Shown here piece after piece: positions 7,931-35,273 of a DNA stretch of 64,000 nt (position 1 is the stretch's first letter; each line of letters starts with the position of its first letter). The position numbers were made by a program, and so were the translations under genes. The notes beneath the pieces were generated by a model. It did not search any database, was not told the DNA's origin, and was given only the letters and a program-made list of their open reading frames with translations. This DNA is from a virus (lineage: Duplodnaviria > Caudoviricetes), in IMG/VR virus record IMGVR_UViG_3300024346_000003; one strand, 5' to 3'.

Positions 7931-8624
7931 AATTAATTGCGTTTCTTTTTTCTAATTCTTCTATTTTTTTATCACTAGGTCTTGTTCTAGAATATGGTAG
8001 CACTTCTTTCTCAAAGTTTGGATAAGTTTCTTTATTAAACACTCTCTCATCAACCAAGAACACAACAGCTGTTAATGTGTCATTTAAATCTGGTTCATAA
8101 AATTCTGAAAATAACACACCGTTCTCATATAACGTATCTCTACTTTTTTGTAAGGAACCATACCATCTATCATCCTTTGAATTATTCGTTGTTCCACCAT
8201 TTAATATAATAAATGTCTTATCTTGTTTTCTCCATTTATTAAACCCAATCTGATTTGATTTTAACAATGCTTCACCAAAGTTAATACTACGACAAATATG
8301 ATTACCATCAAACATCAAATTATTATATTCTTGAACAGCATGTCCATATTGAATCGCTGATTGTATAGAACTAATATTATATGGTACTAAACCATACATT
8401 CTATATTCCAAATACGATTCACCTTTTCTAGGTTGTGAATTTGGTTTTACAGTGCATGATGTAATCATTTGTAAAAACTCAACCCTACCAACAAAATACA
8501 TTTCAAAAAAATGTCTTTCTTTTGACCCATAGAATTCTTCTGGCCACTCATTTAAATCAAGTGGTCTTATGTTATATTCAACACACCATTCATATGGTGT
8601 TTTAGTTTCTTCTACGTTTTTCAT
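7848..8624 (-). CDS. Peptidyl-tRNA hydrolase PTH2-like protein with N-terminal extension
   Basis: MYGLV...IQYGHA...TFIILNGG...FYEPDLNDTLTAVVF pattern. Confidence 0.55.
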   Translation of the reverse strand: MKNVEETKTPYEWCVEYNIRPLDLNEWPEEFYGSKERHFFEMYFVGRVEFLQMITSCTVKPNSQPRKGESYLEYRMYGLVPYNISSIQSAIQYGHAVQEYNNLMFDGNHICRSINFGEALLKSNQIGFNKWRKQDKTFIILNGGTTNNSKDDRWYGSLQKSRDTLYENGVLFSEFYEPDLNDTLTAVVFLVDERVFNKETYPNFEKEVLPYSRTRPSDKKIEELEKRNAINYEKWVEKIGGPKNAFLREFLPKFKLAN

Positions 8625-8775
8625 ATAAAATTTTAATTATCAAAGCCAACCCAATTGTTGCCAATATTATAAATAAATAATAAAGTAATTTAAGTGTTAT
8701 AACCACACATATAAAACTTAAAATTATTAGTAATCCCCAGTAAAACCCTTTTTTTAATCTATCAAACATACTTTT

Positions 8776-9174
8776 TTATTTTCTTCCAAAATCAGCTGGA
8801 ATTTCACCCCATTCTTTAGTCAACCATTTATTAATTTTAATATCTTTGGTCTTTAAAAATTTACAAGCTTTATCCATCCTCTCAATTATATCACCAGCAG
8901 CTGATGATTTGTGTTTTTTATCCCTAACCCAAGCAATGGCAGTTACACTGTCTGACCAAATGTTTGGTTCAATCCCCTTTTTATCACAATAATGAATTGC
9001 ATGACATATTGCTAAAAATTCAGCAACATTGTTGGTTCCAGGTCCCAAATGTTCTTCAAATATGATTTGACCCGTTTCCAAGTCAACACCACGATAAAAA
9101 CATGGACCTGGATTACCTACAGTACCACCATCAACACATATACCACTCGTTGGTTTAGAATTGTCTTGTGTCAT
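8776..9174 (-). CDS. rnhA: Ribonuclease H1
   Basis: VDGG..GNPG, TNNVAEFLA, SDSVTAIAWV, WGEIPADFGRK. Confidence 0.92.
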   Translation of the reverse strand: MTQDNSKPTSGICVDGGTVGNPGPCFYRGVDLETGQIIFEEHLGPGTNNVAEFLAICHAIHYCDKKGIEPNIWSDSVTAIAWVRDKKHKSSAAGDIIERMDKACKFLKTKDIKINKWLTKEWGEIPADFGRK

Positions 9175-19904: not shown

Positions 19905-20549
19905 CTAATTATTAAATAAATTAGTTTTAACTTTAAAATTTTCAGCTAATTCCATTATCTTATTTTGAATATCTTCTGGTAACTCATCAAATATTGAATC
20001 AATATCAATACTTTGACCATCTAATGTTTCAAATTTGTTTAATTGTTCATAATATCTAATGATATCACCAGAGGTTAGTTTGATTTTTTTAAACCTATCT
20101 TTGTTTGGTTGTGCTTGTAGTGGTTGTTGTTCTTTACCAGTAACATAAAGGATTTGATTTGATGTTTCAAAATCCTTTTTTCTCATAATGGTTTTACTGA
20201 TTAAATCTAACTCACCATTTTCCTTATCCCAACTTATAGTAAACGGGATATTAATATTTGTTGGGTTGTTTTTAAATACAGCCTCAAAACCATCTTTATA
20301 TTTAATTAACTGCTCTTTGTATTGTGAATAAATCTTTTTAAAGATATCCCTAAGTTCTTCAATTGTAATTTCCTTACCATTTCTAACATCATTCACCCTA
20401 TCCAAAAAATGTTTTGTAAATTCAATATCAACACCAACACTTTTAAATAAATTATCTAATTCAATTTCTAATTTACCAAGCTGAGATGATGTGACGTAAT
20501 CTTCTCTTAAAAGACTTTCCCTTAATAATTTTTTAATTAATGATTTCAT
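19905..20549 (-). CDS. Hypothetical protein with IKKLLRE-type leader
   Basis: 214-aa ORF, ATATTTAT motif upstream. Confidence 0.75.
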   Translation of the reverse strand: MKSLIKKLLRESLLREDYVTSSQLGKLEIELDNLFKSVGVDIEFTKHFLDRVNDVRNGKEITIEELRDIFKKIYSQYKEQLIKYKDGFEAVFKNNPTNINIPFTISWDKENGELDLISKTIMRKKDFETSNQILYVTGKEQQPLQAQPNKDRFKKIKLTSGDIIRYYEQLNKFETLDGQSIDIDSIFDELPEDIQNKIMELAENFKVKTNLFNN

Positions 20550-20599
20550 ATATTATAAATATCATTAAAAAATTAAAAATTTGACATATTAGTAAATAG

Positions 20600-20688
20600 T
20601 AGAGAAGATGGGATTCGAACCCATGGGACCTTATTAAAGGTCCACCACATTAGCAGTGTGGCCACTTAAACCTCTCGTGCACCTCTCT
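20600..20688 (-). tRNA. trnS: tRNA-Ser(GCT)
   Basis: CCACA-CTGCTAA-TGTGG anticodon arm; long variable arm. Confidence 0.92.
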
Positions 20689-20694
20689 ATATTG

Positions 20695-20767
20695 TACCCC
20701 TAGAGGGATTCTAACCCCCATTCTAGCCTTAGAAGGGCCATGTCCTATACAGTTGAACGATAGGGGC
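20695..20767 (-). tRNA. trnR: tRNA-Arg(TCT), with D- and T-loop deviations
   Basis: TGGCC-CTTCTAA-GGCTA; T-loop TTAGAAT. Confidence 0.8.
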
Positions 20768-20775
20768 GTGTATTG

Positions 20776-20848
20776 TACCCTCGACTGGATTCGAACCAGT
20801 ATTTTTGGTTTCGTAGACCAATGTTCTAATCCATTGAACTACAAGGGC
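20776..20848 (-). tRNA. trnR: tRNA-Arg(ACG)
   Basis: TTGGT-CTACGAA-ACCAA. Confidence 0.93.
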
Positions 20849-21030
20849 ATATTGTTATAATAAGAGTATAAACTGATATAAAACACACCAACCGTATCGT
20901 ATTTATATTCACCGTTTTTATTTGGTGGTTCAATCGCAACAATAGGATAATTCTCACCTAGTATTTTTTGATATTCCATAAATTGATTGTCCGTCTTTGG
21001 TATTGACATTTTTGTGTATAATAAATCCAT
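20839..21030 (-). CDS. Small hypothetical protein (63 aa) in tRNA array 2
   Basis: Start MDLLYTK at 21030; the track start at 21081 lies inside a tRNA. Confidence 0.55.
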   Translation of the reverse strand: MDLLYTKMSIPKTDNQFMEYQKILGENYPIVAIEPPNKNGEYKYDTVGVFYISLYSYYNNMPL

Positions 21031-21044
21031 AATATTTAAATTAG

Positions 21045-21114
21045 TACCGCCTGTGAGGTTCGAACTCACCTTTCCATCCATATGAGGGATAGTTGTACTC
21101 CACTGACTAGCGGC
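21045..21114 (-). tRNA. tRNA-CAT (Met, Ile2 or fMet), weak D-arm
   Basis: ATCC-CTCATAT-GGAT anticodon arm; canonical T-arm; short irregular D region. Confidence 0.7.
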
Positions 21115-21116
21115 AT

Positions 21117-21227
21117 TTTGGTCGATGTCTAGAATCTTTAACCTCCTTTCTTGGCAAGGTCTCCATCATGGGTTCCGTTGATTGATTCATCTTTATAACC
21201 CCATACGGAACAAGCGGGGTAACCAAA
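21117..21227 (-). ncRNA. Unassigned pseudoknotted structured RNA
   Basis: Closing stem TTTGGTT/GACCAAA; ACCCC/GGGGT hairpin whose loop GTTCCGT pairs with downstream ACGGAAC; further stems. Confidence 0.55.
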
Positions 21228-21235
21228 TTATTTTG

Positions 21236-21309
21236 CTCTTCAGGAGGGATTCGAACCCCCAACCCATCGGTTAACAACCGATTGCTCTGACCATTATAGC
21301 TACCGAAGA
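21236..21309 (-). tRNA. trnN: tRNA-Asn(GTT), second copy
   Basis: ATCGG-TTGTTAA-CCGAT; G73. Confidence 0.93.
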
Positions 21310-21385
21310 ATAAAAAAGTTTAGAGGCTTTGGGTTAGACACGCCTCAATATTACATGAGAGACCCCATAGATTGCATAAACTTTG

Positions 21386-21462
21386 TACAGAAGGTGAGAT
21401 TCGAACTCACATGTGACCAACTACCCTTTCTACAAGATATAAGCTTGAGGGGATACATCTGC
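21386..21462 (-). ncRNA. D-armless tRNA-like RNA with TAT anticodon-position triplet
   Basis: Acceptor GCAGATG/CTTCTGT, canonical T-arm, CAAG-CTTATAT-CTTG arm extended by CCCT/AGGG; no D-arm. Confidence 0.65.
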
Positions 21463-21465
21463 ATT

Positions 21466-21516
21466 TTTATAAGTGGCCAAAACTATGTTTTTTAGTGAGT
21501 TTTGGCCACTTATAAA
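21466..21516. repeat. Perfect inverted repeat (14-bp core, 19 bp with flanks)
   Basis: AAGTGGCCAAAACT ... AGTTTTGGCCACTT. Confidence 0.85.
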
Positions 21517-21519
21517 TTG

Positions 21520-21561
21520 TAGGAAACACGGGACTCGAACCCATAACCTTTCACGTATAAA
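21520..21561 (-). pseudogene. 3' half of interrupted tRNA-Ile(TAT)
   Basis: TTTATAC-GTGAA-AGGTT-ATGGG-TTCGAGT-CCCGT-GTTTCCT-A. Confidence 0.8.
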
Positions 21562-21568
21562 TATTTAG

Positions 21569-21640
21569 TAGGCATGTCGAGATTCGAACTCGAAATACAA
21601 CAGTATCAGTGTTGCGTGATAACCATTTCACTACACGCCT
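21569..21640 (-). tRNA. trnI: tRNA-Ile(GAT)
   Basis: CAACA-CTGATAC-TGTTG; acceptor AGGCGTG/CATGCCT; A73. Confidence 0.88.
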
Positions 21641-22208
21641 ATTTATTTAATTCTTCATGTATTTCTCTATGACAATTTGCGCAGACCATAATACATTTGT
21701 CTAATTCTAGTTTTATCTTTTCCCATGATAACACTGAGTAGGAACCAATTCCAAAATCTTTTTCGTTTGGGTCTAAATGATGAAATTCTAACGCTGAATT
21801 ACATCTATCATACCCACATTTTTGACAACAACCACCTTTATATTCAATAGCTTTTTCTTTTAACTTTTGACGAAAGTTTTTAACTTTTTGATAATTTCTA
21901 ATTTTTAACTCTTCATCGTTTAATTTAACATACTTATTTTCAGTATGTTTAATTATTGTTGATTTACCTAGATTAAATTTAACCATACATTCTTCAATGG
22001 TGTGGTCTTTATAGAAGCTATTTAATTCTTCTATTTCAATCTTTGTTAATTTAGCTCTTTGTTTACTAACAAAATTACCACCTAAATTATTATTGTTGCA
22101 ATGAAATGAAACGGTGCTTTTTGAACAATTCAATAGTTCACTTATTTCATTATAATTTTTACCAGAGTTTCTCAACTCTAGAATACTTTCTTTTAAACTT
22201 GTAGTCAT
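21639..22208 (-). mobile_element. HNH endonuclease with N-terminal HTH
   Basis: CQKCGY...LEFHHLDP...KCIMVCANCHREIH. Confidence 0.9.
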
Positions 22209-22280
22209 ATCAATATCTTTTATAGTTATAAATATACTACAAGTTCTAAAAAAGTCAATAGGTGCTAATTTTTATTTTTT

Positions 22281-22307
22281 TGCTCTAACCAGTTGAGCTA
22301 GCTTCCT
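22281..22307 (-). pseudogene. 5' half of interrupted tRNA-Ile(TAT)
   Basis: AGGAAGC-TA-GCTC-AACTGGTTA-GAGC-A; AGGAAGC pairs with GTTTCCT of the 3' half. Confidence 0.8.
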
Positions 22308-22326
22308 ATTGTGAGTGGAAGCCCCA

Positions 22327-22563
22327 TTACTTCCACTTTGTTTTTCTGTTGTGTTTCCACGTTTTGTATTCTCGCCATTTATGATTTGGTAGCTTACGGT
22401 GGCTCCAATTCCACCCATAATCCCATATGTTATAACCATAAATGTTCATCCATCGAATACAATTGTATTCTTTAGAAGTTTTTGCTTTGTTCAGTTTTGC
22501 TCTGTTAATTTTTTTACTCATAATGTTGTGAGTCTGTGAATAGCAGACCTTACAACATATCAA
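22327..22563 (-). CDS. Small basic, Trp-rich hypothetical protein (start uncertain)
   Basis: ORF track; co-oriented within the array. Confidence 0.55.
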   Translation of the reverse strand: MICCKVCYSQTHNIMSKKINRAKLNKAKTSKEYNCIRWMNIYGYNIWDYGWNWSHRKLPNHKWREYKTWKHNRKTKWK

Positions 22564-22591
22564 ATTCCTTTTTCATAAATTTTAAATTTTG

Positions 22592-22678
22592 AGGAGGGGG
22601 TGGGACTCGAACCCACACACCACTAGGGCCTACGGTTTTCAAAACCGCCAAGCTTAGACCGACTGCTCTTACCCCTCC
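22592..22678 (-). tRNA. trnS: tRNA-Ser(TGA)
   Basis: GCGGT-TTTGAAA-ACCGT; long variable arm. Confidence 0.9.
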
Positions 22679-22689
22679 ATTTTTAAATA

Positions 22690-22784
22690 ATAAGGCTACA
22701 GCCTTATAATGTTATAATATAAGGCTACAGCCTTATAACCTTATAACGTTATAATATAAGGTTATAACCTTATAACGTTATATT
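22690..22784. repeat. Palindromic modular tandem repeat
   Basis: ATAAGGCTACAGCCTTAT twice and CCTTATAACGTTATA twice. Confidence 0.8.
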
Positions 22785-22786
22785 AG

Positions 22787-22857
22787 CACGACTAGTAGGA
22801 TTCGAACCCACATCAAGGGATTTGGAATCCCGTATGCTACCATTGCACCATAGTCGT
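22787..22857 (-). tRNA. trnW: tRNA-Trp(CCA)
   Basis: GGGA-TTCCAAA-TCCC; acceptor ACGACTA/TAGTCGT; G73. Confidence 0.92.
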
Positions 22858-22893
22858 GTATTTTACTTACCAATATGTCAAAGAACCTTTGTT

Positions 22894-22977
22894 GGTGTCT
22901 GACGGGAATTGAACCCGCATGTCGTAAGACCCCTGTTTCACAGACAGGTGTGGCAAACTAATATCCACCTCAGACAC
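22894..22977 (-). tRNA. trnH: tRNA-His(GTG), atypical (long variable arm)
   Basis: CCTGT-CTGTGAA-ACAGG; C73; GTC-TTAC-GAC extra arm. Confidence 0.75.
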
Positions 22978-22979
22978 AG

Positions 22980-23054
22980 CTCCCCAGACAGGATTCGAAC
23001 CTGTAACCCCTCGATTAACAGTCGAGTGCTCTAACCAGTTGTAGCTACTGGGGA
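22980..23054 (-). tRNA. trnN: tRNA-Asn(GTT)
   Basis: CTCGA-CTGTTAA-TCGAG; G73. Confidence 0.95.
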
Positions 23055-23224
23055 ATGTTAATGGTGACAAATATTGTTACTTTGCCACCCTTCTTTTCAA
23101 ATTTAAGATTACCGTTGTAACCCATTTCTTTTGCTTTCGCATTGTATTCGTCATAAATCTTATCGAAGTCCTTTTGGAAGTCTGAGACTTTTACAGTTCC
23201 TAATGTTCTTACTAATTTTTCCAT
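23045..23224 (-). CDS. Small hypothetical protein (59 aa), first gene after attenuator 2
   Basis: Start MEKLVRTL at 23224; the longer track start runs through the terminator. Confidence 0.65.
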   Translation of the reverse strand: MEKLVRTLGTVKVSDFQKDFDKIYDEYNAKAKEMGYNGNLKFEKKGGKVTIFVTINIPQ

Positions 23225-23238
23225 AATTTTTATGACAT

Positions 23239-23271
23239 AAAAAAACCCAACTCTATTTCTAGGTCGGGTTT
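23239..23271 (-). terminator. Attenuator terminator of tRNA array 2
   Basis: AACCCGAC-CTA-GAAA-TAG-A-GTTGGGTT plus T-run. Confidence 0.85.
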
Positions 23272-23294
23272 CTGATTTTATTAAATTCTTATTT

Positions 23295-23393
23295 TTAGAA
23301 CTCAATGATATCGCTGAACATACCAGACCTAGTTTGTAGACTATTACGTCTCCAATTACTAATCGACATTCTATGTATGTTATTTGTTATCAT
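23295..23393 (-). CDS. Leader peptide 2, MITNNIHRMSISNWRRNSLQTRSGMFSDIIEF
   Basis: 32-codon ORF; codons 4-18 are all Asn/Ile/His/Arg/Met/Ser/Trp; its CTAGGTC is complementary to terminator GACCTAG. Confidence 0.82.
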   Translation of the reverse strand: MITNNIHRMSISNWRRNSLQTRSGMFSDIIEF

Positions 23394-23426
23394 TGTGTTT
23401 TTTTATTCGTGTATTAATTAAATATA

Positions 23427-34855: not shown

Positions 34856-34900
34856 AGATTATTCTAAACTCGTGGTAGTTTGAGTTAGAAGCGTTAAGCG

Positions 34901-35273
34901 TGGAGATGATGGGAATCGAACCCATGTGTTACTTATTCTCAAAGAGCTTTCTACATGTTTAGGTTGTAATTTACGAATTACCCAAAACCTTTCAGTTCCC
35001 TTATTAACACAGTTCGGTTTACTAACAACTAATCTTCTGCCTATTTAGTTTTAACTCCAATAAGTTAGAGGTTTCAGTGGACTACCACCATCGCATTATC
35101 TTAGGCTAATGCTACCTCTCCTGAAACTACTTCTATCGAAGCGTTTGCTAGGAAGTTTTCGTCTATGTCAAATGAATTGCCATTTACAAAAATAATAGGT
35201 GATTAAAGTGTTTCCATCTAACACTACATGCTTACTAGACAAGACCATAAATAGTCAAAGCCTGGCCATCCCC
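34901..35273 (-). ncRNA. ssrA: tmRNA; tag (A)GNSFDIDENFLANASIEVVSGEVALA
   Basis: 5' GGGGATG...TTTGAC, 3' GGTTCGATTCCCATCATCTCCA, G3:U70 pair, tag ORF 35101-35181. Confidence 0.92.

Follow-up and report, generated by a model that had tools for sequence, protein, structure and literature searches.

A genome fragment of 64,000 nt from an aquatic phage (hereafter the window, meaning the whole stretch of DNA that was analyzed) probably carries a mobile cassette within the phage's resident tRNA-Ile(GAU) gene, at the 5' strand of its anticodon stem, by which a homing-type HNH endonuclease and the tRNA linked to it would replace this allele. The window and its relatives provide a natural record of such an event. 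The empty site, the filled site with both tRNA halves, and decaying halves are found in the same phage population, and a clean replacement is found in another lineage. The conserved unit is an endonuclease gene fused, by overlap of its stop codon, to a spare copy of the displaced tRNA. Homing endonucleases in phage tRNA clusters (SegB, T5 F-Tfl) and the forced inheritance of neighboring tRNA genes were already known. The present locus adds a testable system in which selfish nucleases may shape phage tRNA repertoires and in which the cost of insertion may be offset without an intron.

All the elements of the locus lie on the minus strand. Two pieces of a tRNA gene, of 27 nt (22307..22281) and 41 nt (21560..21520), stand on either side of a 720-bp insert. 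The insert begins with an A/T-rich joint and a promoter-like site, followed by the gene of a 189-aa HTH-HNH protein; the stop codon of this HNH gene is overlapped by an intact tRNA-Ile(GAU) gene. What is left of the resident tRNA-Ile(GAU) on the 5' side is the acceptor strand AGGAAGC, TA, the full D arm, and A26. The 3' remnant covers tRNA positions 33-73, with anticodon-loop positions 33-38, the 3' side of the anticodon stem and, after the variable loop and the T arm, the acceptor strand GTTTCCT and A73 (21520); it shows a G34 to T change at 21559. The acceptor strands of the two pieces pair at 7/7 positions, one G-U included, and the insert (22280..21561) stands in place of six tRNA bases, positions 27-32 (alignment A1). 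The initial annotation of this DNA had reported two flanking tRNA pieces with complementary acceptor strands, an HNH stop codon overlapping an intact tRNA-Ile(GAT), and the absence of the 5' strand of the anticodon stem. The pieces were found where it placed them, the A and G of the TAG stop codon are bases 1-2 of the intact tRNA, and reading through 22307..21520 confirmed that the anticodon-stem 5' strand is missing from both pieces. The edge of the 3' half, given as 21520-21561, had to be moved by one base: the piece is real, but 21561 is already part of the insert's right joint and lies outside the tRNA.

The left joint of the insert (22259..22280, 22 nt, A/T-rich) does not occur in the empty-site relatives (alignment A1). 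It recurs after GAGCA in L117/L118, is present in a diverged version in L091, and was deleted along with the D arm in L001. The right joint, CTAAATAT (21561..21568, 8 nt, alignment A1), has its counterpart in the CTAAA(A/T) that also follows the cassette tRNA in L001, L093, L094, and L118. The promoter-like site TTGACT-16 nt-TATATT (22231..22258) lies 22 nt upstream of the HNH start codon and is the best match to the consensus in the region (10/12). The same motif is found upstream of the HNH gene in L090, L092, L096, and L117/118, with TTGATT in L001 and L091. We infer from these matches that the site may function as a promoter.

The free-standing HTH-HNH endonuclease gene (21639..22208, taken from the ORF list) encodes a protein in which several HTH families of Pfam match residues 6-44, and the Pfam HNH profile matches residues 128-185 with 16.9 bits, below the cut-off of 21.4. 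Its match to PHROG 2255, annotated 'HNH endonuclease', has an E-value of 9e-30. A search of PDB sequences gave weak matches only, with McrA at E 0.017. The motif CxxC...HH...CxxCH...H, both Cys pairs and the His included, is invariant over 10 homologs down to 44% identity (alignment A2), and the catalytic and metal-binding (zinc) residues are all kept in these ten proteins. Comparison with L089 gave dN 0.043 and dS 0.42, i.e. a dN/dS of about 0.1, which indicates purifying selection. The HNH gene hence looks functional.

The intact cassette tRNA-Ile(GAU) (21569..21640 by ARAGORN and Rfam, with one end at 21568/9) is the only canonical tRNA-Ile called by ARAGORN in the 64-kb window. It scores 65 bits with the Rfam tRNA model (E 3.5e-13) and folds into a cloverleaf at -22.2 kcal/mol. 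Changes in its stems between copies keep the pairing (G5-T68 vs A5-T68; G3:C70 vs T3:A70). Given the 65-bit score and these compensatory changes, the cassette tRNA looks functional as well.

Close relatives of the window were found in IMG/VR through a neighboring protein of 214 aa; the filled and empty alleles compared below come from metagenomic contigs. L003 and L004 have no HNH gene at the site and carry one intact 74-nt tRNA gene, of which the two pieces of the window form the ends. Between the pieces these genes read CTTCG-CTGATAC-CGAAG, and ARAGORN calls them tRNA-Ile(GAT). L003 1949-1975 and L004 2415-2441 have the 27-nt 5' piece without a mismatch, as the start of the intact tRNA. As this piece and the 25 nt at the end of the 3' piece match the intact tRNA of L003/L004 exactly, the two pieces can be taken as no chance resemblance. 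Intact HNH-less alleles lie at L003 1949-2023, L114 6063-6137, and L197 2103-2178, and at the empty site (L003, L004, L114) the intact allele equals the two pieces of the window plus 6 nt. From the variable loop onward, the window (21549..21044) is 99.6% identical to L003, and the anticodon-stem strand GTGAA of the 3' remnant is that of the intact L114 allele. A contig of run X6, an independent lake metagenome, joins 21549 to 22281 via 17 letters that hold a GAU anticodon arm. The same locus is therefore empty, with an intact tRNA, in L003, L004, L114, and the X6 contig, and filled in the window, L001, L002, and L117/118. The two halves come from one tRNA and not from two, being joined as a single gene in the four empty versions, and these relatives bear out the earlier proposal that a cassette with an HNH gene and a tRNA-Ile split a single tRNA gene. 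The runs holding the stretch are labeled lake, freshwater, and "marine" metagenomes, and 5-9% of the sampled words were present in the RNA runs X23 and X24. The nearest record, G001, has short tRNA-like matches only to this region.

The triplet at the anticodon position of the 3' piece (21559..21557) is TAT. The initial annotation had taken the destroyed gene to be a tRNA-Ile(UAU), to which the cassette delivered an isoacceptor; the phage would then have lost the tRNA reading AUA, gained one with a GAU anticodon, and changed its decoding set. We consider this highly improbable. The 3' piece does show T-TAT-A at this position, and the T at 21559 appears genuine and no assembly error, because contigs of runs X2 and X5 contain the filled form exactly, this letter included. 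However, every intact version at the site (L003, L004, L114, the X6 contig) has GAT, and the 3' remnants of the cassette-bearing L001 and L002 still begin TGATAC, with G34 kept. A pattern scan for intact genes with the GTGAA strand and either G or T as base 34 had a single hit, contig L114, which has G34 and is HNH-less at the site. True tRNA-Ile(TAT) genes do exist in related arrays (L094 3605-3679, L197), but they are unrelated in sequence. No HNH-less relative keeps an intact tRNA-Ile(UAU) here, an outcome that the initial annotation had itself named as speaking against its reading. Since all four intact versions have GAT and the remnants of L001 and L002 keep G34, the destroyed gene is identified by these comparisons as tRNA-Ile(GAU), and the TAT of the window as a later G34-to-T substitution in a pseudogene, with no decoding role. 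This removes a false lead, as no AUA-reading tRNA-Ile(UAU) would have been lost at this site. Instead of an isoacceptor being delivered, one tRNA-Ile(GAU) was apparently swapped for another, the cassette and resident genes being 61% identical. The rarity of UAU anticodons in bacteria, which had also been raised, is irrelevant with an ancestral GAT.

Could the interrupted tRNA still be functional, either as the exons flanking an HNH-encoding group I intron or as halves joined in trans? The acceptor strands of the pieces pair perfectly, and homologous HNH genes do lie inside group I introns in four loci (L157 1471-2005, L160 733-1268, L166 1400-2030, and L189 with the same layout). These introns match RF00028 at 65-74 bits vs a cut-off of 50 and sit in the anticodon loop of a tRNA-Thr-like gene, in high-GC contigs from soil and sediment. 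Their HNH homologs are 57-62% identical to ours in the core and, by this similarity, are intron-borne relatives of the free-standing phage genes. Yet no intron family, Intron_gpI included, matched window 20400-23400 at E-values up to 10, whereas the same search finds the introns of all four loci. With tRNA bases 27-32 gone, no splice could rebuild the anticodon stem, and the insert itself includes a complete tRNA. The halves have no complementary leader and trailer sequences beside them: the A-rich joint after the 5' half is not complementary to the end of the cassette tRNA and CTAAATAT before the 3' half. In related filled loci the pieces are further eroded. L001 has lost about 40 nt more, the D arm of the 5' piece included and G34 kept, and in L118 the 5' piece persists while the 3' piece is gone altogether. 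A functional interrupted tRNA is thus virtually untenable, and both halves are best described, from these comparisons, as decaying pseudogene pieces. In terms of known classes, a group I intron in a tRNA gene was rejected for want of a ribozyme core match and of a complete exon (positions 27-32 missing), and a trans-joined split tRNA of the Nanoarchaeum type was rejected given the absence of the 5' strand of the anticodon stem.

The linked tRNA moves together with the HNH gene. The cassettes of the window and L118 are 94.8% identical and their upstream flanks 62%, whereas for the window and L001 the figures are 91.8% for the cassette and 95-100% for the flanks. A search of IMG/VR with a 38-nt core pattern of the cassette tRNA gave four contigs, and in 4/4 of them the HNH gene lies directly upstream. 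In L093 and L094 the order is tRNA-Thr, HNH, the same cassette tRNA, and a conserved downstream element, with no remnants, and in L197, their HNH-less relative, this very position is occupied by a tRNA-Ile(GAT) of another allele. The cassette thus seems to have cleanly replaced the resident tRNA-Ile in the L094 lineage. The discordance between cassette and flanks, the finding of the core pattern beside HNH only, and the clean swap in L094 vs L197 together indicate that the HNH gene and the linked tRNA act as one mobile unit, moving independently of the backbone. The gene shows three marks of a free-standing, intron-less homing endonuclease gene: a nuclease domain of such a family with intact catalytic residues, a patchy occurrence at one locus in close relatives whose empty allele is intact, and a similarity at odds with that of its flanks. 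The endonuclease-driven replacement of a tRNA allele, proposed in the initial annotation, fits the empty and filled sites, this discordance, and the clean replacement elsewhere, and is upheld to that extent, stripped of its UAU and isoacceptor parts.

Within the close clade, the D stems of the linked tRNAs (GTGA/TCAC) differ from those of the displaced alleles (GCTC/GAGC), a hint that the D arm may be part of the recognition site. Among homologs near 50% identity, the tabulated D stems show no consistent difference of this kind. Two further observations concern the tRNA genes around the cassette. Upstream of the HNH gene in L091 (2400-2500) lies a chimeric tRNA stump, in which the 5' end of a cassette-type tRNA-Ile is fused, in the D loop, to a resident-type D-loop/D-stem piece and to the A-rich left joint seen in the window; it suggests a later invasion of a cassette-type tRNA. 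The upstream tRNA array of the window (23050-22566, minus strand; Asn, His, Trp, Ser) is 45-68% identical to L001, with sides at 94-100%, and has the appearance of a recombination mosaic within the array.

To place the cassette in its family, we used 104 loci that hold 504 tRNA genes in 324 kb; having been fetched through HNH, they cannot tell how often tRNA arrays lack this gene. In 16 of the 20 loci with near-full-length homologs (at least 49% identity), a tRNA gene with a GAU anticodon abuts the HNH gene; this is a canonical tRNA-Ile(GAT) in 12 loci and a non-canonical tRNA-like gene with a GAU loop in 4. The loci L007-L080, obtained via the 214-aa flank protein, have 12 tRNAs in total and are unusable as a control of any association that is independent of HNH, and a 308-aa neighbor protein used as query gave one related locus only. 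In L096, where the HNH protein is 59% identical, a tRNA-Ile is split between position 26 and about position 31, the same region as in the window; here the intact spare tRNA precedes the HNH gene, which has as its stop codon the TGA in the anticodon loop of the remnant. L114 has a homolog of 116 aa with a zinc-ribbon-like N-terminus (8534-9040, minus strand) that interrupts a tRNA-Asn(GTT). Of this tRNA, the 5' half runs to about position 29 and the 3' half begins in the anticodon loop, with around 5 bases lost; the stop codon TAA lies inside the loop of the remnant, and this insert is without a spare tRNA. In L097, L098, and L135 the acceptor pair also matches across the HNH gene, but the piece before the gene is of hybrid make-up, having a T arm of its own, and these loci were left out of the count of split tRNAs. 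In cultured Alcyoneusvirus phages an HNH homolog is found beside tRNA-Asn. Judging from these placements, the targeting of tRNA genes is a habit across the family, and a single HNH family ties together free-standing, tRNA-splitting, and intron-borne members, all inserting at or near the anticodon arm of a tRNA.

How such a cassette might spread can be sketched from these comparisons. In a mixed infection, the HNH protein would cut the cassette-free tRNA-Ile(GAU) genes in or near the junction of the D arm and the anticodon stem; the target site is deduced from the insertion point and the small deletions only. The break would be repaired from the co-infecting genome that bears the cassette, so that the endonuclease gene and the linked tRNA are copied in. 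With homologous flanks, the old tRNA would be cleanly replaced, as in the L094 lineage. With poor flank homology, as may have been the case in the window, capture would resemble end joining, a few bases would be lost, and both halves would stay as decaying pseudogene pieces. The linked tRNA, presumed not to be cut by the HNH protein, would restore the decoding destroyed by the insertion, much as self-splicing does in the intron-borne relatives. Two findings speak against a resistant linked tRNA: the anticodon arm of the linked tRNA in L096 is near the sensitive-looking alleles, and a cassette-type tRNA is itself truncated in L091.

The HNH protein may alternatively not be the agent of insertion. 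The tRNA array, being prone to recombination, would then have acquired the cassette through an ordinary illegitimate event, and the protein would have another role, for instance in DNA packaging or as an anti-host nuclease, or would cut a generic tRNA-gene motif elsewhere, as SegB does at the T-arm motif. Such tRNA arrays are indeed strongly mosaic (window 23050-22566 vs L001), cleavage by the HNH protein is itself deduced from sequence, and what SegB recognizes is a motif of the T stem-loop and not the site of its own insertion (PMC2330249). We nevertheless find this unlikely. Insertion recurs in the region of the D arm and anticodon arm in three unrelated tRNA contexts (the window, L096, L114), each time with about 4-6 nt deleted. 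The HNH genes are tightly associated with tRNA genes that have a GAU anticodon, relatives occur inside introns of a tRNA anticodon loop, and the presence/absence pattern and the discordance of trees are typical of homing elements. Homing driven by the HNH protein thus remains our preferred account. A bolder version of it would make this clade a 'self-compensating' homing element that, where its relatives shelter in self-splicing tRNA introns, carries an uncuttable spare of the tRNA that it destroys, in an arms race with tRNA-Ile genes that drives change in tRNA sequence and architecture. We hold this to be doubtful, if conceivable. If true, the arms race would account for the altered D stems of the linked tRNAs, and for non-canonical tRNA-like genes with Ile loops that lack the contiguous D-stem/anticodon-stem junction, the hot spot of insertion.

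The closest characterized system is SegB of phage T4, a free-standing GIY-YIG homing endonuclease encoded in a tRNA gene cluster and absent from the close relatives T2L, RB1, and RB3 (PMC2330249). SegB cuts the tRNA genes of the endonuclease-less phage, and the T4 tRNA region is preferentially inherited; its preferred site is a T-arm motif in tRNA-Asn, and no isotype preference was reported (PMC2330249). Homologs of SegB are statistically associated with tRNA genes across phages (PMC13096335). Both systems have a free-standing endonuclease gene within a phage tRNA array that is missing from close relatives, and the replacement of tRNA alleles, established for SegB, would fit the comparative data here. 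However, SegB is a GIY-YIG enzyme located between tRNA genes, whereas the window has an HNH gene inside one. SegB has no spare of a disrupted gene overlapping its stop codon, while the HNH gene of the window does, and the close clade of the window appears to keep to tRNA-Ile with a GAU anticodon where SegB prefers its tRNA-Asn T-arm site. Membership in the SegB-like GIY-YIG endonucleases was rejected, as the Pfam scan of the 189-aa protein gave HTH families and HNH only and no GIY-YIG domain; the resemblance lies in the way of working.

Homing endonuclease ORFs are also present in the tRNA gene cluster of phage T5, according to a 2004 study as cited in PMC2330249. The likeness to T5 is one of location, with endonuclease ORFs in a phage tRNA cluster. 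The endonucleases of the T5 cluster are of the HNH type, and we know of no split tRNA or linked replacement tRNA for them. In Synechocystis, the group I intron of tRNA-fMet carries I-Ssp6803I, a homing endonuclease ORF in the anticodon loop of a tRNA. Such introns share with the window an endonuclease gene in a tRNA gene, at the anticodon arm. The window differs in being without a ribozyme, with an exon that is short of 6 nt, and the harm of insertion would be offset by a spare gene and not by splicing. In Aeromonas phage Aeh1, nrdA is split by mobE ('genes in pieces'), a case cited in PMC2330249 and PMC2790892. The two protein pieces there reassemble and remain functional. The pieces in the window are, in contrast, apparently dead fragments of an RNA gene, function being provided by a second complete gene in the insert. 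No account of such an arrangement came up in the literature that was searched for tRNA pseudogenes next to homing endonuclease genes of phages, which is no proof that none exists.

The window has other RNA genes of note. ARAGORN identifies a phage-borne tmRNA gene at 34900-35273 (minus strand), with the tag peptide ENFLANASIEVVSGEVALA. A family of non-canonical tRNA-like genes, with one copy at window 21386-21462 (minus strand), has a normal acceptor stem and T arm and a 3-bp D-like helix around an anticodon-like stem-loop; the D-loop-like TAG..GGT stretch comes after, not before, this stem-loop. Other copies lie at L114 5931-6007, L130 1758-1834, L138 1238-1313, L145 539-615, L146 1319-1395, L137 712-801 and 1105-1181, L126 2057-2134, L006 1844-1923, L112 33-112 and 1052-1130, L092 2362-2442, L096 255-335 and 3214-3302, L091 3073-3153, L132 1354-1436, and L144 197-277. 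ARAGORN misses or mislabels these genes, and the copy of the window scores 27.4 bits with the Rfam tRNA model vs a cut-off of 29. Among the loci fetched through HNH, they often directly adjoin HNH genes. Over 16 distinct copies, the structure described above is 98% paired and 17 of its 19 pairs have changed on both sides, a level that not one of 500 shuffles attains; controls in which the structure was slid are 38-50% paired. The loop triplets of the distinct copies found are GAU (8), UAU (7), CAU, UCU, and UCG.
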